The notes beneath the pieces were generated by a model. The model worked only from the letters and a program-made list of their open reading frames with translations. It was not told where the DNA came from and ran no database searches. 64,000 nucleotides of DNA from Candidatus Syntropharchaeum sp. (GTDB lineage: Archaea; Halobacteriota; Syntropharchaeia; Syntropharchaeales; Syntropharchaeaceae). A program made the position numbers and the translations under genes. This document shows positions 18,960-44,057 of this stretch, piece by piece; within the stretch, counting starts at the first letter, position 1, and each line of letters opens with the position of its first letter. Location: positions 6,008-70,007 of the forward strand of contig JAOQII010000002.1 of assembly GCA_026134025.1 (NCBI GenBank). Reading direction: 5' to 3'.

Positions 18960-18960
18960 T

Positions 18961-20905: not shown

Positions 20906-22137
20906 ATGATCTGATGCTGATGCTCGCTGCGATTGTTGTGATCGTGCTTGGATCGATAGTCTCAGTCAGAACCCCAAAAGCAGGGCTTTATGGGGCGATA
21001 CTTGCGCTTATAATCGCATTCCTGGCCTGTGATTTACCCCAGTATGGCGTCTTCATCTTTGCGATAGCAATCCTGAATCTTGCATCACTTGGCGCACTGA
21101 AGAGCAAGATACAGGGCATCGACTACGGGCTCGTCGGTCTTATGGGTGTTGTAACGATGTACATCTTCAACACTGCGGATCTCTCGCTCGTTCTGGCATC
21201 GCTTGTGCTTGTATCAACGCCAACATATCTGCTTGTCATGATCCGCGAGGGTGGGGTAGATGTTGAGGTTGGGATAAAGTATATCACTTTCATGGTCATC
21301 GCAACCGTGTTATTCCTGATAGGCGCTGTGATCCTTGCAACAGAGATAAAATCGCTCTACATACTCGGATATGTGACACTCGTGATCGGACTTGCGCTCG
21401 AGGTGGGAATCGCACCGCTTCATGAGTGGGTGCCCGATATTTTCGCCCGTGCTGATCCAGTACCTGTATCGATCATCGCATCGATGGCTAAAGTGGTACC
21501 GTTTGTTGCAGCCATGAGGATACTTTACTCAACGTCCACAGAGCTTACCGCAGTTGTTACAGTATTTACAGCCGTTCTGGCAGCAGTATCAATGTTTATC
21601 GGAAATATCGGAGCTCTAACATCAAAGGAAGCTGCAAGAGTGCTTGGTTACTCGACCGTGGCAAACATGGGATATGTGCTCTCCTGCATGGTTGCAGTCA
21701 TAAACCCGGAATTTTTGGGTATTGCGCTTGCCGGCGGACTTCTGCTCCTCTTCTCAAATGCCGCAGGTAAGATCGGATTCCTCAATGCGATAAAAGGTGA
21801 GAACGCGTACTCGCCGCTGATGTATCTGCTTGCATTCTCATTCCTGGGCGTGCCACCGCTTCTTGGTTTCTGGGGGAAGTTATTTGTTGCAATAGCCCTT
21901 TTGAAGGTTGGATACCTCTGGCTTGCTGCAATACTTGTTATAAATGCTGCAATATCGATCCCCTATTATCTGCGGCTCGCAAAGGTTCTTGGCGGAGACT
22001 GGCATATTAACTTCACAAATATCATCGCAGTTGCGGTTGTGATCTTTGTAATGGTCACAATCATCCCGCCAACGTGGTTTGTTGAGGCAATCGAGACGCT
22101 CATTCCGCTGTTAGGTCTTACAGGAATTGGAGGGTAA
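20902..22137 (+). CDS. fpoN: Antiporter-like subunit (NuoN/FpoN-like)
   Basis: 411 aa. 'GIAPLHEWVPDIFARADPVPVSIIASMAKVVPF' matches the NuoN motif (PfH.W.PDvy.G). Confidence 0.7.
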   Translation: MNDLMLMLAAIVVIVLGSIVSVRTPKAGLYGAILALIIAFLACDLPQYGVFIFAIAILNLASLGALKSKIQGIDYGLVGLMGVVTMYIFNTADLSLVLASLVLVSTPTYLLVMIREGGVDVEVGIKYITFMVIATVLFLIGAVILATEIKSLYILGYVTLVIGLALEVGIAPLHEWVPDIFARADPVPVSIIASMAKVVPFVAAMRILYSTSTELTAVVTVFTAVLAAVSMFIGNIGALTSKEAARVLGYSTVANMGYVLSCMVAVINPEFLGIALAGGLLLLFSNAAGKIGFLNAIKGENAYSPLMYLLAFSFLGVPPLLGFWGKLFVAIALLKVGYLWLAAILVINAAISIPYYLRLAKVLGGDWHINFTNIIAVAVVIFVMVTIIPPTWFVEAIETLIPLLGLTGIGG

Positions 22138-22141
22138 AAAA

Positions 22142-22486
22142 ATGATAGAGAACGCTATTGTAATCGGAGTGATTCTTGCAGTCTGTGTGCTTACAGACGT
22201 GATGATCCTTGCACTTTCAAAGATTCTACCAACCTATCATCTATCTGATCTGAAGGTATCAAGATGGGAGGCTGGTAACCTGCCTGTACCTGCACCAAAG
22301 TCGCTCTTGCCGATGGAGTATCTCGGGTACATGTTCATATTCATGGCAGTGGAGCCTGTGGTTGTTGCAATACTTGTCCTCTCAGCCGTACCAGCTTTGA
22401 ATTTTATTATACTCCTCGCACTTTCATTTGTTCTCATCGTGCCAGCGATATACGTGGGGATAAAATCAACGACGGAGGCGATCTAA
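22142..22486 (+). CDS. fpoA: Complex I-like subunit A (NuoA/FpoA family)
   Basis: 114 aa, 3 TM. 'SRWEAGNLP...YLGYMFIFMAVE' resembles the NuoA YECG...F.iFDvE pattern. Its position before the NuoB-like gene fits. Confidence 0.6.
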   Translation: MIENAIVIGVILAVCVLTDVMILALSKILPTYHLSDLKVSRWEAGNLPVPAPKSLLPMEYLGYMFIFMAVEPVVVAILVLSAVPALNFIILLALSFVLIVPAIYVGIKSTTEAI

Positions 22487-22487
22487 A

Positions 22488-24809
22488 ATGATGAAAGAGG
22501 AGGAAACACGAAACATTAATATCGTTAATTCAGAGCCGCTTTCACCCCTCAAGAAATGGTCAGCAAAATGGAGTTTATGGCCCTGCCACTTTGTAACCTC
22601 ATGCTGTGGTGTGGAGCTTGCCCATGCCTATGGCTGTGGTTATGATGGTGAGCGACTTGGATCGCTGGCGATGGGTATCTCACGGCAGGCGAACACGATC
22701 ATCGTTGAGGGTACAATTACCAGGAAAATGGCACGTCCATTGAGGGTTGTCTGGGAGCAGATGCCTGATCCGAAGTTTGTGAATGTGATCGGCGCGTGTG
22801 GAGAGCGCGGCGGGATATTCTGGAACAGCTATCATATCACACACCCCCACAGGATCGTGCCTGTCGATTTCTTCGTACCTGGCTGTCCTGTAACACCTGA
22901 AGCACTGTTGAGGGGCATACGTGCACTTCAGGACAAGATTGAGGGAGATGACCGATCAACAATCTCATTCAGGACTGTGGATCTTTCAGGAGCCGGGGGT
23001 AAGAAGAACCGGGTACCCGAAAGTCCAAAGATCATCGCACCAACCCCGCTTGTGAAGCCAGACATCCCATCTGGAGTTCGCTGGGAGGAGGGTGAGCAAA
23101 TCGTTGAGATGTTAAAAAAAGTGCTTGGAGAGCTTGTAATTTCAATCACAGTAACTGATAAGGATAGAATTGCCATAAAGACCACACCTGAGAATATCAG
23201 GGAAGTTGCAGCCCGATTATCAGCTGAGATGAAGATCGACCACGTAAAGAGCGTGAACGTCATCGATGTACCGCATGAGCGGAAGTTCATCATCGAGTAC
23301 ACAGCAGGAAGCTACGAGAAGGAGTTGATGCCTGTTTTATTCACGATATTTGCAGATCTTAGATCAGGTAAGGATGAAATCTCATTCCCGAGTCTTGCTG
23401 ACATCTGGATGAGTGCCGATTACACCGAGCGTGAGCTGCAGGATTTCTTTGGAGTTAAATTTGAGGGAAACCCAGGCAGGGAAGGAAACTTCCTATTAGC
23501 ACCTGATACGCCAAAGTTCCCGCTCAGAAGATCTTTTAAACTCGAAGAGGAGCGATACGTCCTTGAAGATGATAAGCCGTTCGCACCTGTGATCGACCCA
23601 CCGACCGAGTTTGATATACCGCTTCCCCCGGGGCTTGAAGAGGAGGTTGGGGCAGCAGGTGAGTATCTGCTTCTTGTTGGACCGCACCATACAGGAAGCG
23701 GACATCTGAGGTGGATCATGCGATTGAAGGGTGATACACTGAGCGAGGTTATACCAGATCCTGGATATGTCCACCGTTCGATGGAGAAACTTGCTGAGAA
23801 CAGACTGTATATCCAGAATATTCCACTATTTGAACGGCTATGTATTGTTGATCCCTTTAATGTGAACCTTGGTTATGTCAGAACAATCGAGAAAGCTCTC
23901 AAGATCGATGTACCAGAGCGTGCAACCTACATCAGGACGTTGATGGCAGAACTATCAAGGATTGACGCCTTCACGTACGATGCAGGAATATTCTCGCTCT
24001 TTATGGGTCACTCAACCGGTTTCATGTACCTGTGGGCGATAAGAGAGATGCTACTTGAGATGATAACCGCGATGACAGGCTCAAGGTGCAGTCCATCATT
24101 CATCATCCCTGGGGGTATAAGGCGCGACATCTCAGATGAGGTGCTCAATCTTGTGGAAAAGCTTCCAACCGCGGTTCAGGGTAGACTCCGTAAGTTTGAG
24201 GATATATTTGTGAATAACCCGGTTCTTATATCACGGGTCAAAGGTGTAGGCGTTTTATCAAGGGAGGATGCGATAAAAGCAGGGATTGTTGGACCATTTT
24301 TGAGGGCATCTGGCGTTGAGTATGACATCAGAAAGATTGAGCCTTATGAAGCCTATGGTGACCTTGACTGGGAAGTAATCGGTGCAGATGATGGGGATTG
24401 CCTTGTAAGATTCCTTGTAAGGCTTGAAGAGATGCAAGAGAGCCTCAATATCGTGAAACAGTGTGTAGAGAAGCTTAAGTCGATGGAGCGCGGAGGCGTG
24501 ATGAGTGAAGCTATACTTGGGGAGTACAGCGAGGCAAAAGATGACATACGCGGCTCATTCTACCGTGTCTTTGGCAATCTGGTTCTTCCACGGGGCGAGT
24601 GGAGCACGGTGACAGAGGCAGCACGTGGCACACTCTTCTTCTCTATACTGAGTGATGGTGACTCGAACGTACCCTATCGCGTGAGAACGATCTCGCCCAG
24701 CTGGTATAACCTGAGAGGGATCATTGAGGCATCGCGGGGTGAGAAGATGGCAGATTTCTGGGCGGTTTATGGAAGTTTTGGATATTTCCCGCCTGAGGCA
24801 GATAGGTGA
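22488..24809 (+). CDS. Fused NuoB-NuoC-NuoD homologue (FpoBCD)
   Basis: One 773-aa ORF with three parts. The NuoB part has the N2 cluster cysteines ('SCCGVE', 'GACGERGG', 'PGCPVTPE'). The NuoC part has 'ADYTERELQDFFGVKFEGNP'. The NuoD part has 'VGPHHTGSGHLRW' and the C-terminal 'PPEADR'. There are no NiFe-hydrogenase Cys motifs. Confidence 0.9.
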   Translation: MMKEEETRNINIVNSEPLSPLKKWSAKWSLWPCHFVTSCCGVELAHAYGCGYDGERLGSLAMGISRQANTIIVEGTITRKMARPLRVVWEQMPDPKFVNVIGACGERGGIFWNSYHITHPHRIVPVDFFVPGCPVTPEALLRGIRALQDKIEGDDRSTISFRTVDLSGAGGKKNRVPESPKIIAPTPLVKPDIPSGVRWEEGEQIVEMLKKVLGELVISITVTDKDRIAIKTTPENIREVAARLSAEMKIDHVKSVNVIDVPHERKFIIEYTAGSYEKELMPVLFTIFADLRSGKDEISFPSLADIWMSADYTERELQDFFGVKFEGNPGREGNFLLAPDTPKFPLRRSFKLEEERYVLEDDKPFAPVIDPPTEFDIPLPPGLEEEVGAAGEYLLLVGPHHTGSGHLRWIMRLKGDTLSEVIPDPGYVHRSMEKLAENRLYIQNIPLFERLCIVDPFNVNLGYVRTIEKALKIDVPERATYIRTLMAELSRIDAFTYDAGIFSLFMGHSTGFMYLWAIREMLLEMITAMTGSRCSPSFIIPGGIRRDISDEVLNLVEKLPTAVQGRLRKFEDIFVNNPVLISRVKGVGVLSREDAIKAGIVGPFLRASGVEYDIRKIEPYEAYGDLDWEVIGADDGDCLVRFLVRLEEMQESLNIVKQCVEKLKSMERGGVMSEAILGEYSEAKDDIRGSFYRVFGNLVLPRGEWSTVTEAARGTLFFSILSDGDSNVPYRVRTISPSWYNLRGIIEASRGEKMADFWAVYGSFGYFPPEADR

Positions 24810-24815
24810 TTTAAG

Positions 24816-25904
24816 ATGATGGGAACTATTGAAGCACTGATAAATTTGATGATGGCGGATCAGGTGGCGATACCGCTTCTTGATCCAATCTTAAATATCC
24901 TCTACGGGATACCACTTCTTGGGTATCTACTTGCCTTCATCCTCTGGAAGCCAATCTTTGCAGGGCTTGTATGTCCTGGCTTTGCAACGCTCGGGGTTAT
25001 CCTGATGCTCTTTCCATGGATTGAGCGAAAGCTTGTTGCACGGATGCAGTGGCGTGTTGGACCCAGAGAGATACTCCCGCAGTTTGGCGGCATCATCCAG
25101 CTTCTTGCAGACTCACTCAGATTCCTCTTCCAGGAGGTGATCGTCCACAGAGATGCAAAGCAACCTTACTTCGTGCAGTTCCCTGTGCTCTCATTCATCC
25201 CAGCACTTCTACCGCTTCTATTCATCCCTGCAGGGGTGATCGTTGCCGTTAAATCAGCCTACGGCGTCCAGATCATACTTGCACTCGTCTGCCTCTTTCC
25301 GTTCTTCATACTGGGGCTTGGCTGGGCATCAAACTCGAGGTTTGCATATATCGGGACGGTGAGAGAGGCGTTCATGTACTTTGCCTATGAGATCCCATTT
25401 ATAATCGCTGTTCTTGCGATGATTGTCCTCTATGGCACATCAGATCCCGTGGCAATCGCGGGAATGTCAGTTCCAGGAATCATCCTGAACCCGCTTGCAG
25501 CCCTCACATTCTTTATAGCTGCAGCGATGGCAACATCCCGTCTGCCCTTTGAGATTGCTGAGGCAGATCAGGAGCTTGCAGCAGGACCTCATGTTGAGTA
25601 TTCAGGGATCTTATTCGGGCTGATCTATGTGATGTGTTATGAGAAGATGTATATCCTTTCAGGGCTGATGACGATTCTATTTCTGGGAGGTGGCAGCGGC
25701 CCTGAGATTGCGATACTTGGCGACCTCTCAGGGGTTGTCTACTTCATGATAAAGACGGTGATTGTTATGACGCTTCTGGCCGCCCTACGTGGTGTCTATC
25801 CAAGATACAGGCTTGATCAGGGATTGAAGATTGGGTGGAGTTCGATGCTGATCATGGGTACACTTGCACTTGTAATATCACTCGCGGAGGTTCTGATCTT
25901 ATGA
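24816..25904 (+). CDS. fpoH: Complex I-like subunit H (NuoH/FpoH)
   Basis: 362 aa, polytopic. 'RKLVARMQWRVGPRE', 'LADSLRFLFQE' and 'PFEIAEADQELAAG' are NuoH hallmarks. Confidence 0.85.
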   Translation: MMGTIEALINLMMADQVAIPLLDPILNILYGIPLLGYLLAFILWKPIFAGLVCPGFATLGVILMLFPWIERKLVARMQWRVGPREILPQFGGIIQLLADSLRFLFQEVIVHRDAKQPYFVQFPVLSFIPALLPLLFIPAGVIVAVKSAYGVQIILALVCLFPFFILGLGWASNSRFAYIGTVREAFMYFAYEIPFIIAVLAMIVLYGTSDPVAIAGMSVPGIILNPLAALTFFIAAAMATSRLPFEIAEADQELAAGPHVEYSGILFGLIYVMCYEKMYILSGLMTILFLGGGSGPEIAILGDLSGVVYFMIKTVIVMTLLAALRGVYPRYRLDQGLKIGWSSMLIMGTLALVISLAEVLIL

Positions 25905-30738: not shown

Positions 30739-30747
30739 AACCACTAA

Positions 30748-30757
30748 GTATATATAG
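30748..30757 (+). promoter_or_regulatory. TATA-like element (agtatatata) upstream of the McrA-like operon
   Basis: Lies in the 86-nt spacer after the upstream module, about 68 nt before ATG 30825. That ATG has the SD aaaggagg at 30811-30818. Confidence 0.35.
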
Positions 30758-30824
30758 AAGGAGTAGCAATAAGCTTACTCGCAACGATATATGTGAATTA
30801 ATTGTGATCGAAAGGAGGCATTAA

Positions 30825-31949
30825 ATGGAGAAGATAGGAAGACCACATCATGATTTTACAGAGGAATGGGCTTATGAACGTTGGATGTTTGAGACGCACA
30901 TACTTGGAAGACCTGGCGATTCCAAGCGAGAGACGCCGATAAAGCTTACGCAGTCGCTTGATAAGTATCTGCAGACTGAGGTCTCGCAGTGGTGGAGAAT
31001 CGGAATGCTTGAGAGTTCTCAGACGGTCAATCTGTGGACACAGGGTCTCTTAGTAGATCCAGAGAATACCACCGTGACACTGGGTTATCCACCCTGTTAC
31101 TCCGCGGCTGTGCCGCTTGACCCTGCTGCAACGATTGCATTATTTGGTAAATCACTCGATCTCTGCTGGTTGCAATCCGATAACTTCTCAGGGAGGGCAA
31201 ACCCTCATACCGTCTCATATCACTACGAGGATGGTGTGATGACGTACATCGCGATGACCGACCCGGGTGAGGGGCAGGAGCTTGTTGAGCGGAAGCACAT
31301 GAAGGTCGGTAAGGAGGTAAAAGATCTCCCATACAATTATCCCGCGTTTGAGGCCGTGATGCTGATCAGGGATGTGATGATGGATGCAAGGAACGAGGAT
31401 ACCCCGGAGTATGCGATGTCTGCGTACCATCAGGGATGCTGGCAGGCACACCACGGCTACAACGAGTCTTTCCCCTCAAGATCGACGATGGATGCGATCA
31501 TGGGTATGTATCCGTTCTTCAACTGTGAGAAGATGGGGTGGCCCTTCAAGTCAACCTGTGATGAGCTACCAAGGCCCGTGGGGCTTGAGCTTTTAGTTGA
31601 GAACCCACCAGATATCTTCACATGGAGATGGAACGCACTGATTCTGGGTGAGAACTGGTCGAGCAAGTACACGATCTCACCCCACGAGCTGCACCTCGAG
31701 CTGCAGGGTATGGAGACGATTCCATGCACACCAGAAGAGACTGCCCGCAGGATCATCAGATATGGTATGGATAGATACGTCTTCCCTGAGACGTTCAAGC
31801 AGTCGACGTACATCTATGGGGATGAGGCAAGGGTACAGGAGCCAACAGAGTATCCACTCCCTGCCAAGACTGTTGTCTCTCACAAGGATGCAACCGATCT
31901 GATCTATAAAGCGCGAAAAGAACATCCTGAATGGATAATGGAGGTATAA
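30825..31949 (+). CDS. Hypothetical protein, 374 aa, rich in Trp, Tyr and His (occupies the position of mcrB but has no McrB motifs)
   Basis: Strong SD and a long ORF with a 3-nt gap to the next gene. I recognise no family. The McrB signatures (for example SHSIYGGGGPG) are absent. Confidence 0.7.
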   Translation: MEKIGRPHHDFTEEWAYERWMFETHILGRPGDSKRETPIKLTQSLDKYLQTEVSQWWRIGMLESSQTVNLWTQGLLVDPENTTVTLGYPPCYSAAVPLDPAATIALFGKSLDLCWLQSDNFSGRANPHTVSYHYEDGVMTYIAMTDPGEGQELVERKHMKVGKEVKDLPYNYPAFEAVMLIRDVMMDARNEDTPEYAMSAYHQGCWQAHHGYNESFPSRSTMDAIMGMYPFFNCEKMGWPFKSTCDELPRPVGLELLVENPPDIFTWRWNALILGENWSSKYTISPHELHLELQGMETIPCTPEETARRIIRYGMDRYVFPETFKQSTYIYGDEARVQEPTEYPLPAKTVVSHKDATDLIYKARKEHPEWIMEV

Positions 31950-31952
31950 AAG

Positions 31953-32498
31953 ATGCCGATAGATTACAGTGTTTCAAAGAAGATTGTCGAGAATGGCATG
32001 GTGAACGTGGATAAACTCTGCCCTCACTCAGGGTTTGACAACGATATATATAATATACCGGCATGCAAGGCACCGATCGTTAACAAAGAGCTTTTATACT
32101 CGTACGTCCCAGATTGTGGGGTCTTCATGGGTCCAAAGACGACAAAGGCAAAATCACTTGTATATGGTGGAGAAGCAGAACCGCTCTATACGTATACCTG
32201 TGAGAAGGGGCACAAGTTTGTACGATGGTCTGGATGGTGTGATGTTCCCGAGGTTGAGCCTGGAACGAATGACCTGCACATGAGCGCTGAGACACTTGTC
32301 AAAGAGGGTAAGATGTTCGGGAGGCTTGAGAACTTTGAACCAAGGAGTACCCCAGGCTATGTATCAGTGGTCAAGAAGATTGAGGAAGAGGGATACACCC
32401 CAACCCAGGACGAGATGGAACAGTTCGGCATAACCCCAGAGGGAAAGGGACATGGAAATCCAGCCGTGCATGAATTGAAGAAGTGGGGATTGAAGTAG
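31953..32498 (+). CDS. Hypothetical protein, 181 aa, with 5 Cys (occupies the position of mcrG but has no McrG motifs)
   Basis: Starts 3 nt after the previous stop. Cys/His pattern: 'CPHSG', 'PACK', 'PDCG', 'YTCEKGH' and 'GWCDVP'. The McrG signature (RYRG.D.GTLSGRQ) is absent. Confidence 0.65.
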   Translation: MPIDYSVSKKIVENGMVNVDKLCPHSGFDNDIYNIPACKAPIVNKELLYSYVPDCGVFMGPKTTKAKSLVYGGEAEPLYTYTCEKGHKFVRWSGWCDVPEVEPGTNDLHMSAETLVKEGKMFGRLENFEPRSTPGYVSVVKKIEEEGYTPTQDEMEQFGITPEGKGHGNPAVHELKKWGLK

Positions 32499-32528
32499 TT
32501 ATTTAGTTAATTATAAGTATAAAAGAAG

Positions 32529-34412
32529 GTGAATAAATTGGCTAAGAAGAAGAAGGCGACCAAGGGAGGGGTAAGTACTGGGCTTACAGATCTCGAGGAT
32601 AAGTATCGGAACAAGATGTTCCATGAGGTAACCGAGGGGACCGTCATCTCAACAGAGCTTGCATACAGTTACGATCCACTGAAACTGAAAGATGAGTTCA
32701 TGCCAGTAGAGCGTCAGCGGGAGATTTACAAGGCTCTCGATACGCTCTTCAATGGCGAACCGATGGATACTGTCGATGAGGAATCGTATCGGCATGGTGG
32801 TGTCCAGCAGTGTAAATCAAAGCGAGACTGGACTGAGTGGGGTAAGAAAATCTCGGTTGAGCGTGGAATCCCGCAGTACAACCGTGAGATGGGTATCCCG
32901 CTGGGTCAGCGATACTATGAACCTATTCTTGTATCAAATACCGACTATGTCGTGGACTATGATGACTTCTCGATCTACAACAACTGCGCGATCCAGCAGT
33001 TGATGGATGATATGAGAAAGACCGTGATAATCGGGCTTGATGTCCCGCATCGAGTCATCCAGCTCAGGCTCGGTAAGGAGATCTCTCCTGAGTCGATGAA
33101 CCTCTACATGGAGACGATGCAGCACGTGCTCGCAGGCGGTGCGGTTGTCCAGGAACACATGGCAGAGGCACATCCAGGTCTTGTTACTGATGCGTATGCG
33201 AAGATTATCACAGGAAACGCGGATCTTGCAGAGCAGTTCGATAGAAGATGGGTGATGAGTATTGAGAAAGAGTTCCACCCATCAAGGGCTGAACCTCTCC
33301 ACGAAACGATCGGAAACAGGCTCTACAATACGATCAGAACCCATACGCTCAGGCTGAGGATGACAAATGGAGCGGCTGTCATCAGGAGTGCGGCTATCGC
33401 TGTCACGATGTCATTTGTCGCGGCATACAAATTAACAGGCGAGTCGGTCCTATCTGATATCTCATTTGCAACACGGCATGCACAGGCGATTCACATGGGG
33501 CTTCCAACGTGGCTCTCGAGATCGCAGTCGCCGAACGAGCCTGGAGGAATCCCACTGGGGTACTGGGCTGATATGTGCTGTGCTGAGAAGGAGCTGCCGA
33601 ATACACCATGGATGAAGGCTGTTACCATCGAGCGGGACATGCAGCTCGGAAAAGATATGACCCAGGCTGTGCTTGAGTGCTGTGCTATCGCTTCACATAT
33701 GGATTCGGTATGGTATGGCATCTACATGTCAGGTGGACTTGGATTCCCGGCGTTTGCATATCTCTACTGTGGTAACATCCTCGATGACTGGCTCAACCGT
33801 TTCACTGAACTGTGCTACTACAACTTTGAGGGGCATGAGCGTTTCCCGGATTCGTGGGACTGTGCCAAGGGGATGGGTGAGGTTGCAGCCCTCTACCTCA
33901 TGGAGACGTATGAGAAGTACCCAACACTTCAGGAGCTTCACTGGGGCGGTGCGATCAGGTGCTTCATAACCTCAGCGATCGCAGATTCCTTTGCCGCACT
34001 TTTAACAGGTGATGCACTCCAGGGCTCGATGATCCAGAACTACATCGTCTCACTCCTCATGAAGGAGGGGTGGCTCAGGACCGGCTTTGGTGGACAGGAG
34101 GTGCAGGCACACTGTGGGCCCGCGTACGGGACATCGCTCAGGATCGAAGAGGGTGGACTCCCGGAACTTCGAGGGTCGAACTATCCAATGATGTCCTATA
34201 CAGCGACACACACACCAGGCTATATCACAGGGATTTATGCAGCGATGATAGGTCGAGGATCGTCATGGTCCTGCAGTCCCCTTGTGAAGGTTGCGTTTGC
34301 AGATCCTGATTCGTCATTTGACTTCAAGAATGCGCGGCTCTGCATCGCAAAGGGCTGCGCAAACGAGTTTGAACCGCAGGGTGAGCGTGACCTGATAAGG
34401 CCTGCACGATAA
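32529..34412 (+). CDS. mcrA: Divergent methyl-/alkyl-coenzyme M reductase alpha-subunit homologue (orphan McrA-like protein)
   Basis: It aligns by eye with McrA along its whole length. Matching blocks are 'ERGIPQYNREMGIPLGQR', 'RKTVIIGLD..RLGKEISPE', 'GGAVVQEHMAEAHPGLVTDAY', 'SPNEPGGIPLGYWADM', 'YMSGGLGFPAFAY..GNILDDW', 'LPELRGSNYP', 'SPLVKVAFAD' and 'EFEPQGERDLIRPA'. It is 627 aa with an N-terminal extension of about 60 aa. The start is GTG 32529 or TTG 32538. Confidence 0.9.
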   Translation: MNKLAKKKKATKGGVSTGLTDLEDKYRNKMFHEVTEGTVISTELAYSYDPLKLKDEFMPVERQREIYKALDTLFNGEPMDTVDEESYRHGGVQQCKSKRDWTEWGKKISVERGIPQYNREMGIPLGQRYYEPILVSNTDYVVDYDDFSIYNNCAIQQLMDDMRKTVIIGLDVPHRVIQLRLGKEISPESMNLYMETMQHVLAGGAVVQEHMAEAHPGLVTDAYAKIITGNADLAEQFDRRWVMSIEKEFHPSRAEPLHETIGNRLYNTIRTHTLRLRMTNGAAVIRSAAIAVTMSFVAAYKLTGESVLSDISFATRHAQAIHMGLPTWLSRSQSPNEPGGIPLGYWADMCCAEKELPNTPWMKAVTIERDMQLGKDMTQAVLECCAIASHMDSVWYGIYMSGGLGFPAFAYLYCGNILDDWLNRFTELCYYNFEGHERFPDSWDCAKGMGEVAALYLMETYEKYPTLQELHWGGAIRCFITSAIADSFAALLTGDALQGSMIQNYIVSLLMKEGWLRTGFGGQEVQAHCGPAYGTSLRIEEGGLPELRGSNYPMMSYTATHTPGYITGIYAAMIGRGSSWSCSPLVKVAFADPDSSFDFKNARLCIAKGCANEFEPQGERDLIRPAR

Positions 34413-34425: not shown

Positions 34426-35013
34426 ATGGTATACTATGGAGAGGTTGCACCAACTGCATATGAAAACGTACCAGGGCACTTTCTACCAACACCGCCACTG
34501 CCTGACAGGTGGTGGGATGATGTTGACTGGATCATCCTGAAGGATCACGAACCGACAGCGTACGAGATGCTCTTTGACTTCTACATCAACATGATCGTGC
34601 CAAATCCGAAGTGCACGATGGTTTCATCGAGATTTCCGCCAAGGTCAATCCTTATCGAGACGTGGCACCCCGAGCGTGGGCTTGAGGTTAACAGGTTCAT
34701 GATATCCCCTGGTGGGATCAGAGAGGGTGCACCTGAGCCAGGATCAGGTGTTGAGGTCGATACAATCTTCAGGATCGACTACTATGACCTCGCAAATATC
34801 CTGCTCGGCAATAAGCGACCAACCGATCCTGTGGCTGATAACGCAAGGATCAATGAGCTCTATGGTGGTCCGTGTCTCAGGGGAAACCTGACGGCACTCA
34901 TCGATTTCAAGGATATCATCATGCTTGCACATGGTAAGCGATGGAAGACTGAGTGTGATGATGATCTCGGAAAGGAAGTAAGAGCGATGATGTGGCCTGA
35001 TGGCCACCCCTAA
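34426..35013 (+). CDS. Hypothetical protein, 195 aa, with a possible SCP2-like (lipid/alkyl-binding) C-terminal half
   Basis: Starts 13 nt after the mcrA-like stop, with SD aaggaggt. 'FRIDYYDLANILLGNKRPTDPV...LRGNLTALIDFKDI' resembles the SCP2 pattern 'D..D...l..GK.nP..af..GklkikGnm.la.kl'. The assignment is tentative. Confidence 0.55.
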   Translation: MVYYGEVAPTAYENVPGHFLPTPPLPDRWWDDVDWIILKDHEPTAYEMLFDFYINMIVPNPKCTMVSSRFPPRSILIETWHPERGLEVNRFMISPGGIREGAPEPGSGVEVDTIFRIDYYDLANILLGNKRPTDPVADNARINELYGGPCLRGNLTALIDFKDIIMLAHGKRWKTECDDDLGKEVRAMMWPDGHP

Positions 35014-35043: not shown

Positions 35044-36108
35044 TTGATGAAACTCTGTGCACCCCTGCCCGGGCATCTTGACGCAACAAAGAAGATTCTA
35101 AAAGAAGAAGCTTCCAATCTCCATGAAGTCTTCATGGCTGGGTCTTCAGATTATATCCCAACAGGCAGGCAGGCTCTTGGAGAATCCTTCAGTGAGACGA
35201 TAGAAGAGACAACGAGGCTTGTACATGAAGATAACCTTCGCATGGACGTTGTGATGAACGCCTCGTGCATGGGAGGAAGACACCTCACGGATGAGGGTTT
35301 GCACCGTTACATGAGCTACCTTGAGATACTCGCACGTGCGGGTGTTGATGCTGTGACGCTTGCAGATCCCTACCTCATCGAGGTTGCATCCAGAAACTTC
35401 TCGTTTGATGTCATCGTCTCATGTATCTCCTTTGTGGATTCTCCAGAGAAGGCTATCTTCTATGAAGAGCTTGGTGCGGATGGTATAACAGTTGATACGA
35501 GTATAAACAGAGATTTCCACGTGCTTGAGGCGATTAGAGATGCTGTATCCTGTGATATCAGGGTTCTTGTCAATGAAGGGTGTCTCTATAAATGTCCTTT
35601 CAGGTACTTTGACTTCAACGTCGTATCGCATACCTCAGGTCCTCCGCCAGTACCAAAGATCTCATTCAACTACTACCAGCGCAAATGCAGATCTTTGAGG
35701 GTTAAGAAGCCGTGGCTTCTGATGAAGGCAAACTGGGTAAGGCCAGAAGACCTGAAGGCATACGAAGAGATCGGGATCGATACCTTCAAGATAAGCGGGA
35801 GAAATCAACCTGTAAACTGGGTGATCGAGACCATCAAGACCTATAAAAGCAGGGACTTTTCCGGAAATCTCATCGATCTTCTCGATTATTCAAGGAGTAT
35901 GAAGCATCTCTTCTACATCCCAAATAAGAAACTCGATGGGGCGATAGATAGATGGAAGTCATGTGACAGGAACTGTCATCGATGTGGGTTCTGCAAAGAT
36001 CTGACAGCGCAGATCATGAAGGTATATCTTGAGAGGGGGACGGATCGAGAAATGCTTGTAAGTCTAACTGAGTTGAATGAAGGAGTTCCTGATGAATACC
36101 CTGAATAA
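35044..36108 (+). CDS. Peptidase-U32-family protein (the family that includes UbiU/UbiV, RlhA and TrhP)
   Basis: TIM-barrel-like layout: 'ILARAGVDAVTLADPYLIEVA', 'EELGADGITVDTSINRDF' and 'IRVLVNEGCLYKCPFRY', which resembles the U32 'EvFvhGalC...G.C' motif. There is also a C-terminal Cys cluster 'CDRNCHRCGFC'. Confidence 0.6.
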   Translation: MMKLCAPLPGHLDATKKILKEEASNLHEVFMAGSSDYIPTGRQALGESFSETIEETTRLVHEDNLRMDVVMNASCMGGRHLTDEGLHRYMSYLEILARAGVDAVTLADPYLIEVASRNFSFDVIVSCISFVDSPEKAIFYEELGADGITVDTSINRDFHVLEAIRDAVSCDIRVLVNEGCLYKCPFRYFDFNVVSHTSGPPPVPKISFNYYQRKCRSLRVKKPWLLMKANWVRPEDLKAYEEIGIDTFKISGRNQPVNWVIETIKTYKSRDFSGNLIDLLDYSRSMKHLFYIPNKKLDGAIDRWKSCDRNCHRCGFCKDLTAQIMKVYLERGTDREMLVSLTELNEGVPDEYPE

Positions 36109-36469
36109 TTTGCTCGATCATCGAGGATCGATTGAGAAGCGTCTCATGAAACTGACAGGACGTGTGATCTGGGTTGTACAGCTCAATCTATCCTCCTTCA
36201 GCTGCGGGTGCACCGGGATAACGATATTTTTTGCGGGGCTTGAGAAAGAGGACGTTGAGGTATTTGCATCCAGGATCGTCGAGATACTCAACGAGGTCAC
36301 AGCAAGCGTGAGACTTGATCCTGATATCATCTATGCGTCGCTGGTACCTGGATCATCAGAGGTTGGCTCGATCTCACTGAAACGCCTATGTGATGAATGC
36401 AGAAAAGACTATGGCGGAGATGTAAGGCCCTGGAGTAACATAAGCATTCTTTATAAAAAAGCGTGCTAA
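36092..36469 (+). CDS. Hypothetical protein (about 125 aa), last gene of the McrA-like operon
   Basis: The ORF overlaps the U32 gene's 3' end by 17 nt (32 nt if it starts at 36077). I recognise no family. Confidence 0.4.
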   Translation: MNTLNNLLDHRGSIEKRLMKLTGRVIWVVQLNLSSFSCGCTGITIFFAGLEKEDVEVFASRIVEILNEVTASVRLDPDIIYASLVPGSSEVGSISLKRLCDECRKDYGGDVRPWSNISILYKKAC

Positions 36470-36551: not shown

Positions 36552-36624
36552 GCCCGGGTAGTGTAGAGGCCCATCATGGAGCCCTGTCGAGGCTTCGACT
36601 CGGGTTCGAATCCCGACCTGGGCG
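36552..36624 (+). tRNA. tRNA-Asp (anticodon GTC)
   Basis: Cloverleaf folded by hand. The acceptor stem GCCCGGG/CCTGGGC has one G-U pair. The anticodon stem GAGCC/GGCTT closes the loop CTGTCGA. The T-arm is GGGTTCGAATCCC. 73 nt, no encoded CCA, and a T6 tract follows at 36629-36634. Confidence 0.9.
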
Positions 36625-36659
36625 TACATTTTTTATCTATTGAGATTGTTAATCAAAAT

Positions 36660-39600
36660 ATGCGTTCTTATTACACTAATATTAAGCGAATGAGGGAGAT
36701 CATTAAAAATTGTGAGGGCTTTGATCGGATCATCGTTGTAACATCAAATAAGAATCAGGCGGCATTCTGGAAAAAGAGGCTTGATGGGGTCAAAGATCAG
36801 ATCATAGGTCAAAATTCGAAGATCTATGTTGTTCTTGAAGAATGGAAGGCTGGACAGCTTCTTGGCACATTGAACGCGTGGAATGAAGCCTGTAAGGAGG
36901 AGGATCTTGATGCACTTCTGGAGAATGGGGGGAAGGTTGCTATATACCACACCGCGGGTCTTGGGAAGCGTATGGCGCCGATTGTTCAATCAGAGGGGGG
37001 AGATAAATCTGCGATTAAGCTTCCAGGGTTACTTGAATATGACGGGCAAAAGGTACCAATGAGACTGCTTGAAGCTGTAATATACCAGTCTTCGATATTT
37101 GCACCGTCTCGTAGGGGCAGGATCTGCGTTTTCTGGACAGATCAGGTCTTTATTCCATCAGGAGATGTGGAGTTTGAAGGAAAGCATCACGTCGAACTCT
37201 TGAGTATCAGAAGAGAAGCACCGAGAACCCGGGAGGATTGGGACCAGAACTGGCGGTCTTACGGGCTTGTAATCCCTGATGATGATGGGGCAATGATGCT
37301 CGAGAAGCAAACCTGGGATGAGTTTACGAGGCTCATCGATGGTGGCATCATAAAGCCAAAGAAAGGGAAGTTTGTAATCGCAAAAGGACTTGGATGTTTC
37401 TCGATATCACATAAATTCTTCATTGAAGTTCTTGCTGCGTTCAGGAAGGATCTGGAAGAGCGAGGGAAGCTTGATACAGATCCTGATCTGTGGATGCCCC
37501 TGACATCACCCCAATTTGTTGAGACCGAGAAAAGGGCAAGAGTTGAAGGTTTGATAGATAAATTTGCACCGGGAGATCTGATCTTTAAAGATAAAGACGT
37601 GGGTGCTGATACATACTGGTGGGACTTTGGACAGGTCAGGCTCTACCATCAAAACCTGTTGAAACTGACAGAGGAGACAGAAGAGGGGGAGGTGATGCGT
37701 ACCTTCTTCAGGATCTGGAATGGCTCATCTGTGGTTGATAGCGTGATTAAGGATTCAGATCTTAGAGCGTGTGTCGTGATCTCAAGCCGGCTCAAGGGCG
37801 TGAGAGCGAAAAACTCTGTCATCTACAACTGTATCGAGCTTTCTGGATTCTCGGCTGAGAAGGAGGTTGTTGCAGATATTTTTCATCCGCTCAAGGGAAA
37901 GATAAGGATGAGAGCAGAGATATCTCGGGATGGAAAAAAAGACTGGAACCAGCGAATTTCTCCAAACTCATATACCTACGAGGAGCTTGAGTGTTTGATG
38001 AGAGATGTCTCGATGGATGAAATACACAAAGAGAGGCGTGTCTGGGAGAACTACTTCACACTGGATCTTGGAGCGGAATTTGATAGACTTAAATATTCAG
38101 GTGTACGGTTTAAGGAGAATCTCGTTCTGAAGGCATGGGGATACGAGTCCTGGCTCTGCTCTGCTCATCCCGCAAACCCATCGATGATAAGGGTTAGAGA
38201 TCTTGATATACCCCTGATTCACCTCCTGAATCATTGTGGAAGCTCGATAATCGGTAAGCAGATTTACAGCGATTTCAAGGGTGAGTTTCCGATACTGACC
38301 AAGTTCATAAACGCAGAGGAGAACCTATCTGTCCAGGTCCACCCATCTGATGAGGATGCTGAGCTTTTAGGTGAGGTTGAACGAGGAAAGACCGAGAGCT
38401 GGTACGTGATCGATGCAAAGCCAGGTGCAAAGATATATCTTGGCCTTAAAGAGGGGATCTCTGATCTTTCTGCGATTACAGAGGATGACCTGAATGCGAT
38501 CGAGGTTAAAGCTAATGATGTGTTCCTCATTCCTGCAGGAACACTTCATGCGATAGGTGGGGGAATTCTCCTCTTTGAGATTCAGGAATCGTCTGATATA
38601 ACATACAGGGTCTGGGATTGTGGGAGGGGGAGAGAACTTCATCTTGAGAAGGCGAGAGTAGTTTGCGTCTTTGATCAGGATCCAACTAATTTAAAACAAA
38701 GTCCTGAGCAAGTTAATGGCGAGATAGTACTTGTTGATACGCTTTATTTCACTTTATCGCTTATAGAAAGCGGTAAAGAGGAGACCATGGGATCATTTCA
38801 TCTTCTGACCGCGATCGAAGAAGATGCTGTGCTGGAGGTTGATGGAAGGCACGAGGAGTTAAAAAAAGGTGATACGGTCTTGATTCCAGCATCTATCCCG
38901 GCATACAGGATCAGATCGCGTGGAAAGGTTCTGAAGTCGTATCTTCGCACGCCTGAACAGATAGATCCTGTGATCTTCCAGACGTATGATGTGAGAGCTC
39001 ATGAGAGCAAACTTCCAGACCGGGTCTGCTATTACCTTGGAAAGGGATATGGGACCTATCTGCGCAGGCTTAAAGGTGCACCAGAAGGTGAGTTATGGGT
39101 CTGCATCGGCGGTGGGATCAGGCTCTCAACCCCACGGATAAGAAAGTCGCTCATCGCTGGAGTCTTATCAAGTGGTGTCAACGTCTACGATCTTGGGATA
39201 ACCTCAACACCAGAACTTTACTTCTCAATCCCCTTCCTCGGTGCGGATGGTGGGATAAATATAACAGCATCTCACAACCCGGCTTTTTACAACGGCCTTA
39301 AACAGGTCATAAAAAGTGATGATGGTTTCATATCAAGCATAAATCGTGATGAGATGCTTGAGATAAAAAGGACGATCCTCGAATCGGATTTTCTTGAGGG
39401 GAAAGGAAGGTCGATGAAGGTCGAGGAGGGATCGATCCCCAGATACCATAACATTCTCGTTGAGTCAAATTGCAGACTCGGCAGGGAGATCTGGATTCAT
39501 CTTTTAAAGAATTGGAACCTGAGAGAACTTCTCGATACGCTCTCAAACGTGAGCTTTCCAGAAAAGGCAGATCGAAAAAGCTTGAAAGCGATTAAGGAGA

Positions 39601-40661
39601 GGCTTCGGATTCCAGATGACCTTGAGTTGCCCATTACAGCGGTTGATAAGCCACTGGCTGGTCTGAAAGTTGTTATAGACTTTGGTAACGGCTCTGCATG
39701 GAGGACACAACGTGTGTATGAAAATCTGGGCTGTGAGGTCATTGGCTTGAATCAAAAACCTGATGGAAATTTCCCAGCCCATCATCCTGACCCCATCAAG
39801 GCAAAATACCGAAAAGAGCTTGAAGAAACTACTGTCAGGGTTGCAGCACAGGAGAAAGAGAAGGAAGTTGTGGGGTTCGGGCACGACGAGGATGGGGATC
39901 GCGTAATTTTTGTCAGATCTGATGGAAAGGTTGTTGAGGGAGATCGGACGCTTGCGATACAGGCGAAAGATATAATAGAGGATTACAGCACAAGAGGGAA
40001 AAAACCAAAATTCATCGGTGAGGTTAAGTTCTCACGGGTTACAGAAGAGTTCATAACGTCGAGTGGGGGCGAGTATATCATGACACCGACGGGTTTTGCC
40101 TTCATAAAGGAGCGGATAAAGGAAGAATACAAGAAGGGGGAAGATGTTGTGCTTGCAGCAGAGCTTTCAGGACATCAGATGACAGGGCATGAAGAGAACT
40201 GGATGTTTGATGACGGAACAATGGCAGCCTGTAAACTTCTTATTGTAATCGCAAAGGCAAGGTCTGAGGGCAAGACGTTCATCGATCTTGATGAGGCTAT
40301 TCCACGCTATCCTGCAACACCTGAGATAAACATAAAACTTCCAACGAATGCGCTCGATGAGAAGGAGGAGATTGTGAGAACAGCTCTCAGGCGATTTGAA
40401 GAGATGGATTTTGAGATAGATTACACTGATGGTGGCTTGATAAAGTGGTATGATGACGAGGGTTGGGCGGGGCAGGCACTCATCAGAAAATCAAACACAC
40501 AGCCGATGATAATATGCAGGGTTGAAGGCAGGGATGAAGCGAGAAAGGAAAGGGTCGAGGCAGAGTTCTTCGGCGTGCTTGAGCAAATATCGACCGATGT
40601 TCTCGATAAGCTTGATCTTGAGTCTGATGATTACCTCAGGGAATGGAAAGTTAAGAGATAA
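36660..40661 (+). CDS. Three-domain fusion: FPGT/fucokinase-N-like sugar-1-phosphate nucleotidyltransferase + type I mannose-6-phosphate isomerase + phosphomannomutase/phosphoglucomutase
   Basis: The N-terminus has 'RIIVVTSNKNQAAFWKKRL' (FPGT-like). The middle part has the PMI cupin motifs 'QVHPSDEDAE', 'TESWYVID' and 'IPAGTLHAIGGG..EIQESSDITYRVWD'. The C-terminus has the PGM/PMM motifs 'NITASHNPAFYNG', 'GHDEDGDR' and 'AELSGH'. The start was moved to ATG 36660 because the ORF-track start overlaps tRNA-Asp. Confidence 0.85.
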   Translation: MRSYYTNIKRMREIIKNCEGFDRIIVVTSNKNQAAFWKKRLDGVKDQIIGQNSKIYVVLEEWKAGQLLGTLNAWNEACKEEDLDALLENGGKVAIYHTAGLGKRMAPIVQSEGGDKSAIKLPGLLEYDGQKVPMRLLEAVIYQSSIFAPSRRGRICVFWTDQVFIPSGDVEFEGKHHVELLSIRREAPRTREDWDQNWRSYGLVIPDDDGAMMLEKQTWDEFTRLIDGGIIKPKKGKFVIAKGLGCFSISHKFFIEVLAAFRKDLEERGKLDTDPDLWMPLTSPQFVETEKRARVEGLIDKFAPGDLIFKDKDVGADTYWWDFGQVRLYHQNLLKLTEETEEGEVMRTFFRIWNGSSVVDSVIKDSDLRACVVISSRLKGVRAKNSVIYNCIELSGFSAEKEVVADIFHPLKGKIRMRAEISRDGKKDWNQRISPNSYTYEELECLMRDVSMDEIHKERRVWENYFTLDLGAEFDRLKYSGVRFKENLVLKAWGYESWLCSAHPANPSMIRVRDLDIPLIHLLNHCGSSIIGKQIYSDFKGEFPILTKFINAEENLSVQVHPSDEDAELLGEVERGKTESWYVIDAKPGAKIYLGLKEGISDLSAITEDDLNAIEVKANDVFLIPAGTLHAIGGGILLFEIQESSDITYRVWDCGRGRELHLEKARVVCVFDQDPTNLKQSPEQVNGEIVLVDTLYFTLSLIESGKEETMGSFHLLTAIEEDAVLEVDGRHEELKKGDTVLIPASIPAYRIRSRGKVLKSYLRTPEQIDPVIFQTYDVRAHESKLPDRVCYYLGKGYGTYLRRLKGAPEGELWVCIGGGIRLSTPRIRKSLIAGVLSSGVNVYDLGITSTPELYFSIPFLGADGGINITASHNPAFYNGLKQVIKSDDGFISSINRDEMLEIKRTILESDFLEGKGRSMKVEEGSIPRYHNILVESNCRLGREIWIHLLKNWNLRELLDTLSNVSFPEKADRKSLKAIKERLRIPDDLELPITAVDKPLAGLKVVIDFGNGSAWRTQRVYENLGCEVIGLNQKPDGNFPAHHPDPIKAKYRKELEETTVRVAAQEKEKEVVGFGHDEDGDRVIFVRSDGKVVEGDRTLAIQAKDIIEDYSTRGKKPKFIGEVKFSRVTEEFITSSGGEYIMTPTGFAFIKERIKEEYKKGEDVVLAAELSGHQMTGHEENWMFDDGTMAACKLLIVIAKARSEGKTFIDLDEAIPRYPATPEINIKLPTNALDEKEEIVRTALRRFEEMDFEIDYTDGGLIKWYDDEGWAGQALIRKSNTQPMIICRVEGRDEARKERVEAEFFGVLEQISTDVLDKLDLESDDYLREWKVKR

Positions 40662-42983: not shown

Positions 42984-44057
42984 TTATCGCCACTTTCCAA
43001 GATATGTCGCGATGGCAAGCGCCACAATACCGAACACAATCTCAAACCCAGGTGGCTCTTCTGGTGTTGCGGTTACTGGAACTTCTGTTTCTGTTTCAGC
43101 AGGCATGGTGCTGATCCCATAGATCCTATCGATCGTCTCCTGGGGTATGAACGAACCTCCCTGTCCGAGTATTTCACCTTCACAACCATCGCAGAGTACT
43201 TCCTTGTTCTCGTGACAGAATGCACAATCCTTTGCTTCAGCTGTTACCGTGTGTGCGAACCATTCACCATAGCCTGTATGTGTTGCATTAGATTCATTCA
43301 TAGCTGTCATTTTAACAAATGGCTTCACCTTACCATCAGCAGCAACGCCAAGATAGAACTGTGTGCTGTCAAAGGTGGTGCCTTTCCTGGTATCCAGATG
43401 GCAGTTCTCACACGTCACCATCCATCCCGAATGGCAGGCGGTACAGTCAAGCTTTCCTTCGTGCCTGCTGTGCGCTTCAATATTGGAATCGTACTGCGTC
43501 ACGGGCATGTCCTTGACAGTCTTTCCTGGACTTACGTGACAATCTTCACACGTCGTCGTGACTGCTTCAAGCTGGCTCGTGTACACGTTCCCATCACCGT
43601 GTAATTCCGTGGCTGTATGACAATCTATACAGGTAAGCCCTTTCTCATAGTGGATGTCTGCATGAGGGGCTTTGCTCTTGTGTACCGGCATATCACCGAT
43701 AAACGTCGCGGTTTGCTTCTTGAAATGACACTGATCACAGGTATCGATCGTTATCTCTCCACCATGTCCACCTTCATGACACTTCTCGCAGGTTGTGGCG
43801 TGACACTTGGAACAGTTCCACTCTGCATAATATTCGTCCATATCGATGCCAAAATGCTCTGCTGCGTATTTCTCGTACTCTCCCTTCATCCCTGCACCCG
43901 TATAGTGGAGTGATGTTGCAAAGTTTGCTGCAATCTCTGGATGACAGCCTTCACACCCGCCAAAGTCCTGGGTTTCGTCCGCCATAACCGAATTCACAGC
44001 CCAAATTGAGAATATTACAGCCATAAATATGACTGACATCTTTCCGATCTTCTTCAT
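42984..44057 (-). CDS. Nonahaem c-type cytochrome with signal peptide and PGF-CTERM sorting signal
   Basis: Nine CxxCH motifs: CEGCH, CSKCH, CEKCH, CDQCH, CIDCH, CEDCH, CTACH, CENCH and CAFCH. It has an N-terminal hydrophobic leader. The C-terminus reads 'TETEVPVTATPEEPPGFEIVFGIVALAIATYLGKWR'. Confidence 0.9.
   Translation of the reverse strand: MKKIGKMSVIFMAVIFSIWAVNSVMADETQDFGGCEGCHPEIAANFATSLHYTGAGMKGEYEKYAAEHFGIDMDEYYAEWNCSKCHATTCEKCHEGGHGGEITIDTCDQCHFKKQTATFIGDMPVHKSKAPHADIHYEKGLTCIDCHTATELHGDGNVYTSQLEAVTTTCEDCHVSPGKTVKDMPVTQYDSNIEAHSRHEGKLDCTACHSGWMVTCENCHLDTRKGTTFDSTQFYLGVAADGKVKPFVKMTAMNESNATHTGYGEWFAHTVTAEAKDCAFCHENKEVLCDGCEGEILGQGGSFIPQETIDRIYGISTMPAETETEVPVTATPEEPPGFEIVFGIVALAIATYLGKWR

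Follow-up and report, generated by a model that had tools for sequence, protein, structure and literature searches.

The predicted alpha subunit of an alkyl-coenzyme M reductase from a Syntropharchaeales archaeon and the conserved genes beside it

Alkyl-coenzyme M reductase (ACR) is the nickel enzyme of alkane activation in butane-oxidizing archaea. Within a 64,000-nucleotide stretch of contig JAOQII010000002.1 from a Candidatus (Ca.) Syntropharchaeum species (the window, comprising contig positions 6,008 to 70,007 of the forward strand), an open reading frame (ORF) at 32529-34412, here termed acrA, very probably encodes the F430-binding catalytic alpha subunit of an ACR from a Ca. Syntrophoarchaeum-like archaeon (Syntropharchaeales) that oxidizes short multi-carbon alkanes. 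The assignment is carried by homology, residue pattern, clade membership, orthology and gene context, all observed directly. The gene itself is one more species' copy of a described enzyme; analysis of its context is of greater use and bears on two further questions, namely the post-activation steps from alkyl-coenzyme M (alkyl-CoM) to acyl-CoA and the assembly needs of ACR.

The acrA reading frame encodes a full-length, non-canonical McrA homologue

acrA, 32529..34412, + strand: 627 amino acids (aa); predicted ACR alpha (catalytic) subunit, from Pfam, PDB, orthology and a neighbour-joining (NJ) tree

The frame in the ORF list coincides exactly in coordinates and length with that described in an earlier reading made from the letters and translations alone (the sequence-only reading). 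Both McrA domains lie on the ORF (PF02745 MCR_alpha_N, 287 bits; PF02249 MCR_alpha, 76 bits in Pfam), and the product aligns end to end with the solved alpha chains of methyl-coenzyme M reductase (MCR), the best match being M. kandleri 1e6v_A (E = 8e-131), with ethyl-CoM reductase 7b1s_A also found in the PDB sequence search (E = 2e-85). Against TIGR03256, the NCBIfam equivalog of canonical McrA, the product scores 480 bits, below the cut-off of 767.75. The domains and PDB matches, taken with the score under the cut-off, identify the product as a real but non-canonical McrA; the ORF is a genuine full-length homologue, and chance is excluded. The annotated GTG start at 32529 overlaps a Shine-Dalgarno-like GGTGA (window 32525-32540), and translation more likely begins at TTG 32538, which GGTGA precedes by 6 nt. 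The resulting 624-aa protein begins MAKKKK, an N-terminus that matches the S. butanivorans orthologue introduced below and the 624-aa calls in the same 90% cluster, so that TTG 32538 is the probable true start.

Active-site residues map onto M. marburgensis McrA

Residues were mapped with HMMER against 3pot_A and with a MAFFT alignment of ~115 sequences (the window protein, McrA of Methanothermobacter marburgensis and those of the 120 best matches that reach 540 aa or more), and the two agree. The M. marburgensis sequence used was checked against the HMMER alignment to 3pot_A. M. marburgensis residues stand first, window residues second.

Gln147, Gln208: conserved; axial F430 ligand
His257, His317: conserved
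Arg271, Arg331: conserved
Phe330, Phe406: conserved
Phe443, Phe520: conserved
Gly445, Gly522: conserved; thioglycine site
Cys452, Cys529: conserved; S-methyl-Cys position
Lys256, Arg316: substituted; absent from the sequence-only reading
Arg270 (CoB-binding), Ser330: substituted
Tyr333, Phe409: substituted
Gln400, Ile476: substituted
Tyr444, Gly521: substituted
Asp450, Ala527: substituted
Met480, Tyr557: substituted; absent from the sequence-only reading
Asn481, Thr558: substituted
Val482, Ala559: substituted; absent from the sequence-only reading

Both alignments bear out the hand alignment where it had called Gln147, His257, Phe330, Phe443, Gly445 and Cys452 conserved and Tyr333, Gln400, Tyr444, Asp450 and Asn481 substituted. 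Its placement of 5-methyl-Arg271 opposite Gln333 was off by two positions: LSRSQSPNEPGG and VRRARGENEPGG align without a gap in HMMER and MAFFT alike, with Gln333 opposite Arg273, and Arg271 is therefore conserved as Arg331. Arg225 and Met324 are likewise shared with M. marburgensis McrA (3POT/1HBM), which belongs to the same two-domain fold family and is 40.6% identical to the window protein. Identity is 43.7% over residues 23-284, close to the ~45% estimated by eye for the N-terminal half, and 37.5% over residues 285-550, a modest fall that had been overstated as "much less". Compared with M. marburgensis McrA, the window protein is extended by about 60 aa at the N-terminus, carries 17 inserted residues at 361-377 and lacks single residues at M. 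marburgensis positions 242, 315 and 334. The extension with its Lys-rich start, also remarked upon in the sequence-only reading, is real; its last ~25 residues (~40-62) are kept across the ACR clade and the Lys-rich tip is variable. The practical value of the table is a correctly mapped residue set for the Syntrophoarchaeum "group d" ACR, including the corrected Arg271 and the lineage-specific Phe409, Ala527 and Phe520.

The residue pattern is the published ACR signature

The closest relatives are Syntropharchaeales proteins from metagenome-assembled genomes (MAGs; 96% identity), a cluster containing OFV67021.1, annotated as McrA of Ca. Syntrophoarchaeum butanivorans (85%), and further Syntropharchaeia proteins (60%), followed by Ca. 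Alkanophaga liquidiphilum (55%), Helarchaeota/Hodarchaeota (49%) and Bathyarchaeota BA1/BA2 (43-44%), with canonical methanogen McrAs at 42% or less. OFV67021.1, the "group d" ACR of Lemaire and Wagner (2022), is 85% identical over its full length, is of the same length class, has a Lys-rich N-terminus and carries the same residue at every tabulated key position except 452 (Cys529 in the window, Ala in S. butanivorans). It corresponds to tag SBU_000314, as judged from the neighbouring 374-aa protein (SBU_000316), the gene order and the presence of this tag among the four AcrA of the organism. The order of genes is identical in the two loci (big-small-acrA-SCP2-U32-DUF5402-PMI/PGM, the last a phosphomannose-isomerase/phosphoglucomutase fusion; see below), whereas the upstream genes differ (Fpo/FrhB/MvhD/FdhA-like in the window, DNA polymerase X in S. 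butanivorans), the two being separate species. On this sequence and gene-order evidence the window acrA is the orthologue of OFV67021.1 (SBU_000314). Among the MCRs of S. butanivorans, OFV67021.1 has been assigned, as alpha subunit, to the one with the highest expression, and it has been modelled with beta subunit OFV66073.1 and gamma subunit OFV66072.1 (PMC9118554).

The NJ distance tree places the window AcrA inside the ACR clade and not among canonical MCRs, in agreement with the ranking of homologues. Its subclade comprises S. butanivorans OFV67021.1, the "cluster 3" AcrA of Alkanophaga, and Syntropharchaeales and Archaeoglobi-type sequences, with a Helarchaeota plus Bathyarchaeota subclade as sister. 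At the positions that separate the two groups, the residues found in the ACR clade are as follows.

Position 270: S/N/A/Q/G
Position 333: A/G/T/F
Position 400: H/I/L/V
Position 444: G/S/A
Position 480: Y/F
Position 481: T/S

None of the 40+ ACR-clade sequences retains Tyr333, Asn481, Tyr444 or Gln400, all of which the sampled canonical MCRs keep, and Arg270 is also invariant in those MCRs; the window AcrA has lost all five. The sequence-only reading had proposed an F430-type enzyme with a remodelled substrate pocket, which was right in kind and matches what an ACR alpha subunit is; the protein is not of a new kind. The same substitutions occur in OFV67021.1 and in the ACR alphas of eight loci in which mcrB and mcrG are directly adjacent (L006, L010, L014, L015, L021, L023, L029 and L031; L-numbers denote fetched loci, all scanned with locally built hidden Markov models, HMMs). 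ACRs with normal beta and gamma subunits therefore carry them, an outcome that the sequence-only reading had itself named as refuting its proposal. The pattern is the published signature of an already described enzyme class and holds no new biology. Substitution of alpha400 by Ile, His or Glu and altered CoM- and coenzyme B (CoB)-binding residues in the Syntrophoarchaeum enzymes have been reviewed, as has a single deletion in loop 239-246 that opens the cleft to the CoM site (PMC9118554).

These data leave very little room for an ordinary methane-forming or methane-oxidizing MCR alpha subunit. The name given by NCBI to a 96%-identical protein (coenzyme-B sulfoethylthiotransferase subunit alpha) and retention of the axial Gln, the thioglycine-site Gly and methyl-His257 would suit such an enzyme, but the TIGR03256 score lies far under the cut-off, the five residues invariant in sampled canonical MCRs are lost, the protein nests in the ACR clade, and the organism with the orthologous gene, S. 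butanivorans, oxidizes butane and propane and not methane (PMC9118554). That acrA is an inactive relic or a non-catalytic paralogue appears equally improbable. The gene stands alone, without beta or gamma genes, and carries several lineage-specific substitutions (F409, A527), but the 627-aa frame is intact, cofactor and coenzyme ligands are conserved, relatives down to 51% identity keep the core residue pattern, and in S. butanivorans and Alkanophaga the counterparts show the highest expression among the ACR alphas.

Outside the window, locus L003 of a Syntropharchaeia MAG encodes a second, very divergent McrA homologue of 558 aa (1641-3317; Phe330 to Ile, Tyr333 to Gly, Asn481 to Ala), located beside a Prismane/CODH-like gene and 2.7 kb upstream of a big/small/acrA set. 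In the NJ tree this homologue forms a basal branch of the ACR clade.

Proposed reaction, substrate pocket and partner subunits

We infer cofactor binding, substrate and quaternary structure from homology to MCR and ACR. In the proposed reaction Gln208 would hold Ni(I)-F430 from below, and the cofactor would react with an alkane and CoM-S-S-CoB, the heterodisulfide, to yield alkyl-S-CoM and HS-CoB. By orthology, butane or propane is the most likely alkane. The changes that form the ACR-clade signature (Tyr333 to Phe, Tyr444 to Gly, Asn481 to Thr, Met480 to Tyr, Gln400 to Ile, Arg270 to Ser and the loop 239-246 deletion) would remove polar or bulky side chains that seal off a pocket of methane size above F430, and in published models the cleft opens for larger alkyl chains (PMC9118554).

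Two related enzymes frame this proposal. To our knowledge, the ethyl-CoM reductase of Ca. Ethanoperedens thermophilum (PDB 7B1S) is the only structurally solved ACR. It has a homologous alpha subunit and is an F430 enzyme with an enlarged active site, but it belongs to a different ACR branch. It has an axial Met, Trp373 in place of Phe330 and a Tyr333 equivalent kept as Tyr376 (PMC9081873), whereas the window AcrA keeps Gln and Phe330 and loses Tyr333; the ethyl-CoM reductase side of this comparison is taken from PMC9081873 and not from an alignment. The Alkanophaga cluster 3 AcrA (55% identity) falls in the same ACR subclade as the window protein and is likewise encoded apart from acrB and acrG. 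The same two unannotated genes precede it, and the locus adjoins an Fpo/hydrogenase-like membrane complex. It differs in having Ala at 333 and Trp at 443 (both Phe in the window) and in keeping Asp at 450, and its locus differs in a ycaO gene inserted before acrA and in having no SCP2-like gene directly downstream. This AcrA is highly expressed during oxidation of C5-C14 alkanes, that is, of longer alkanes (Zehnle et al., 2023).

The expected quaternary structure is the usual (alpha-beta-gamma)2 hexamer, with canonical AcrB and AcrG encoded outside the window. In contrast to M. marburgensis, where mcrBDCG adjoin the alpha gene, no such set flanks acrA: mcrB and mcrG were not found anywhere in the 64 kb (phmmer with Helarchaeota B/G against all six-frame ORFs), and Pfam and NCBIfam detected no mcrB, mcrG, mcrC or mcrD among the flanking ORFs, so that an mcrB(DC)GA operon context is lacking. 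The same situation holds in two relatives. The highly expressed cluster 3 acrA of Ca. Alkanophaga is "spatially separated from acrB and acrG", with an orphan acrB/acrG pair on another contig in the source data (PMC10322722). S. butanivorans has four AcrA and four AcrG, including the orphan acrB/acrG pair SBU_001010/001009. By this precedent a standard hexamer with its partners outside the window is the simplest reading.

Three points weigh against identifying acrA as the alpha subunit of a short-chain, multi-carbon ACR. The AcrB and AcrG partners are assumed and not seen in the 64 kb. The butane or propane substrate is extrapolated from the culture physiology of a related species, alkyl-CoM formation in Ca. 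Syntrophoarchaeum having been shown at culture level only (PMC9118554). Finally, three residues are peculiar to the lineage of the window and S. butanivorans, namely Phe at 333, Phe in place of Trp at 443 and Ala at 450.

acrA lies in a one-strand set of six genes

Features around acrA are listed below.

30739..30824, + strand: intergenic region with a TATATATA box-like (TATA-like) element at ~30750 and an AAGGAGG ribosome-binding site before big
30825..31949, + strand: big, 374 aa; equivalent to SBU_000316; uncharacterized family conserved beside acrA
31953..32498, + strand: small, 181 aa; motif C...C...YxCExGH...R..WxDVPxV in the family alignment, zinc-ribbon-like by inspection
34426..35013, + strand: SCP2-like protein, 195 aa; 13 bp downstream of acrA; equivalent to SBU_000313
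35044..36108, + strand: U32-family protein; Pfam Peptidase_U32, 48 bits; 30 bp after the SCP2-like gene
36077..36469, + strand: DUF5402 protein; Pfam DUF5402, 95 bits; overlaps the end of the U32 gene

The six genes big-small-acrA-SCP2-U32-DUF5402 lie on one strand with gaps of 3, 30, 13, 30 and -32 bp, and the region 30739..30824 is the likely start of a transcription unit comprising them, with a predicted promoter.

The big/small pair is linked to ACR and distinct from McrB/McrG

Neither big nor small has a sequence match in Pfam, NCBIfam or PDB, a profile search of PDB yielded no MCR chain for them, and the 25 clusters of the big family are all unnamed. Family members range from 374 to 500 aa (big) and from 110 to 197 aa (small). 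An exhaustive HMM search with big retrieved 72 representative proteins in 1.84 billion, and a pattern scan of 185,579 GTDB species genomes found the close big family in only 9. These include S. butanivorans, Alkanophaga, JdFR-42 and the tar-biofilm Syntropharchaeales (for which up to six AcrA copies have been reported); at least 4 of the 9 belong to lineages known for ACR genes, and for the remainder the fetched loci contained acrA or mcrB/mcrG.

All nine independent contexts that were fetched through AcrA have a relative of big no farther than 4 kb from acrA; they come from Syntrophoarchaeum, Alkanophaga, two other Syntropharchaeia, Helarchaeota, Bathyarchaeota BA2 and three lineages known from metagenomes. 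Across the fetched loci small adjoins big with few exceptions, both families spanning Syntropharchaeia, Archaeoglobi and related lineages; in Bathyarchaeota BA2 a distant big relative stands near acrA without small. The order mcrB-mcrG-big-small-acrA recurs in six loci (L010, L019, L021, L023, L029 and L031), followed by the SCP2-like gene in L010, L023, L029 and L031, the contigs of L019 and L021 ending before that position. In Archaeoglobi JdFR-42 (L014) and an Archaeoglobaceae MAG (L015) the pair is divergently transcribed from an acrBGA-SCP2 operon, while tandem arrays of up to five or six big/small pairs occur in L027 and L033. For big, small and SCP2-like proteins, distances follow those of the adjacent AcrA (Mantel r = 0.86-0.89, p = 0.0002; r = 0.88 for big), a signal to be read only as co-inheritance and not as proof of physical interaction, since co-inheritance in an operon alone could produce it. 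On synteny and co-inheritance, big and small would thus constitute an additional ACR-linked module that is not McrB/McrG.

It is highly improbable, though marginally less so than an ordinary MCR or a relic, that big and small replace McrB and McrG as partners in a non-canonical reductase. Such a swap would account for the lack of mcrB and mcrG in the 64 kb and for the position of the pair directly upstream of acrA, and the sizes are loosely comparable (374 vs ~440 aa and 181 vs ~250 aa), but small can be only 110 aa. By hhalign, big matches McrB with a probability of 0.1% and small matches McrG with 0.0%, against 22% for the McrB-McrA positive control, and Foldseek gave no McrB match. In at least 8 loci the pair stands in the same operon as genuine mcrB and mcrG, and in both S. 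butanivorans and Alkanophaga the orphan acrA is counterbalanced by a retained orphan acrB/acrG set. The pair does not replace mcrB and mcrG, since it occurs alongside true copies of them, even in one operon.

Other candidate identities were rejected as well. The reading of big and small as very divergent McrB and McrG was set aside, since Pfam, NCBIfam, PDB profile search, hhalign with its positive control and two attempts at AlphaFold2 (AF2) with Foldseek yielded no match to them. AF2 models of big reached a mean predicted local distance difference test (pLDDT) score of 53.6 with the window sequence first and 58.9 with P0123 first, too poor to be counted as a fold, and Foldseek with these two low-confidence models returned nothing significant and no MCR chain. 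An actin-like-ATPase-type fold was dismissed at E >= 0.02 and a template modelling (TM) score <= 0.2, the family being without a DxGxS/T phosphate motif.

Zehnle et al. (2023) drew the two genes before the Alkanophaga acrA as "unannotated". In the literature searched, including the tags SBU_000315/316, we found no discussion of the big/small pair, and neither did a search for additional ACR subunits or SCP2 with ACR return any. The association of the pair with acrA emerged as a by-product of the acrA analysis and may be new.

The HMM search with big also reached a distant group of ~390 aa without a Pfam family, and one context of this group (L009) is not ACR-linked. These relatives (L009, 6001-7179) keep the core motifs FPP, HxEDG, RRHMxxG and DxRNExxP outside ACR loci; their neighbours are small ferredoxins and a FixC/geranylgeranyl-reductase-like flavoprotein. 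In the source data the other two acr operons of Ca. Alkanophaga are flanked by FixC-like genes too.

A possible extended ACR module

It is possible, at somewhat below an even chance, that this ACR lineage works with the co-encoded big, small and SCP2-like proteins, an arrangement compatible with the identity of acrA. The proteins could be extra subunits, a module for delivery of hydrophobic alkanes or enzymes that take alkyl-CoM towards acyl-CoA. Its supports are the one-strand arrangement of the six genes with gaps of at most 30 bp, the constant proximity of big to acrA in the nine contexts, the recurrent operons, the divergent pairs of L014 and L015, the restriction of the close family to nine genomes and the matching distances. 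SCP2 domains, moreover, bind hydrophobic chains. The steps from alkyl-CoM to acyl-CoA are stated to be unknown (PMC11543930). Against this, the association is purely genomic, and operon co-inheritance alone can yield the Mantel signal; certain pairs (L022, L028 and L032) are separated from any ACR gene by over 6 kb, distant big relatives occur outside ACR loci, and the profile, hhalign and Foldseek searches revealed no fold, cofactor motif or homologue that suggests a mechanism. The occurrence of up to 5-6 tandem pairs per acrA (L027, L033) argues against a subunit of fixed stoichiometry or a single maturation factor, and would better fit adaptors or enzymes specific for substrates or isomers.

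In broader terms, we tentatively suggest that the multi-carbon ACRs of this clade form the core of a larger module (the big/small pair, an SCP2-like carrier and perhaps a U32 hydroxylase) that delivers alkanes or takes up alkyl-CoM, instead of working as alpha-beta-gamma enzymes on their own, a view we hold with somewhat less than even confidence. If true, its proteins would offer the first concrete candidates for the steps still missing between alkyl-CoM and acyl-CoA, or else for a role in ACR-specific assembly. A screen for enzymes that turn butyl-CoM into butyryl-CoA listed >500 candidate families, none of them assigned (Chen et al., 2024); the gene neighbourhood narrows these to three or four small, conserved, co-inherited genes beside acrA.

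The SCP2-like, U32 and DUF5402 neighbours

The product of 34426-35013 appears to be a divergent SCP2-like protein of the sterol-carrier/alkyl-sulfatase C-terminal type, on sequence matches that are weak but consistent. In a search of the family profile against PDB, the only matches at E <= 10 are four SCP2 chains (best 4uei_A, E = 0.005). Pfam SCP2 matches three of the five family members (best 6.8e-4), and Alkyl_sulf_C matches one of them (1.3e-4); the window copy alone falls below Pfam significance. SCP2 matches were obtained on the orthologues in L010 and L011, and the Bathyarchaeota BA2 orthologue is a plain Pfam SCP2 match. A family member adjoins acrA in 13 of 17 distinct ACR loci, including those of Helarchaeota and Bathyarchaeota. 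In published work SBU_000313 (unannotated, ACR-enriched) and the U32 gene SBU_000312 were found only in a supplementary enrichment table (Chen et al., 2024, Suppl. Data).

The U32-DUF5402 pair follows the ACR genes in the window and in S. butanivorans (L007/L012), and in L010 (534-2283) it lies divergently next to an ACR operon of 47% identity. O2-independent hydroxylases are among the known U32 enzymes. By analogy the U32 protein might conceivably take part in alkyl-CoM chemistry or in modification by hydroxylation, and its link to ACR is tentative. The family is present in 5/7 ACR-encoding and 0/54 MCR-encoding Syntropharchaeia (Chen et al., 2024, Suppl. Data).

Other genes in the window

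The window further encodes CODH/ACS (carbon monoxide dehydrogenase/acetyl-CoA synthase; cdhABCDE), an HdrD-like protein with electron-transfer flavoprotein, two acyl-CoA dehydrogenases, an enoyl-CoA hydratase and a thiolase, together with an Fpo-like complex, FrhB-like proteins, MvhD and a multihaem cytochrome. This combination of beta-oxidation and Wood-Ljungdahl genes corresponds to the published set of alkane oxidizers and fits an organism of that kind.

The Fpo/Nuo-like membrane complex (17466-25904) includes a 773-aa NuoB-, NuoC- and NuoD-like fusion (22488-24809). Next come a NuoI-like ferredoxin, two FrhB-like proteins, DUF22, MvhD/FlpD and, in truncated form (330 aa), a molybdopterin-oxidoreductase-like protein. 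The region lies directly upstream of the ACR gene set, and the Alkanophaga cluster 3 acrA (L001) likewise adjoins such a complex. Downstream of the set, 36576-40661 encodes a 1361-aa fusion of phosphomannose-isomerase/cupin domains with a four-domain phosphogluco/phosphomannomutase; the fusion also follows the ACR gene set in S. butanivorans (SBU_000310) and is listed as enriched in ACR-encoding Syntropharchaeia (3/7 vs 0/54). Farther downstream, a 357-aa multihaem c-type cytochrome is encoded on the minus strand at 42984-44057 (Cytochrom_c3_2/Cytochrome_C7 matches), near type IV pilus-like ATPase and platform genes at 47127-50492, and this combination of multihaem cytochrome and pilus-like genes would fit direct transfer of electrons to a bacterial partner.

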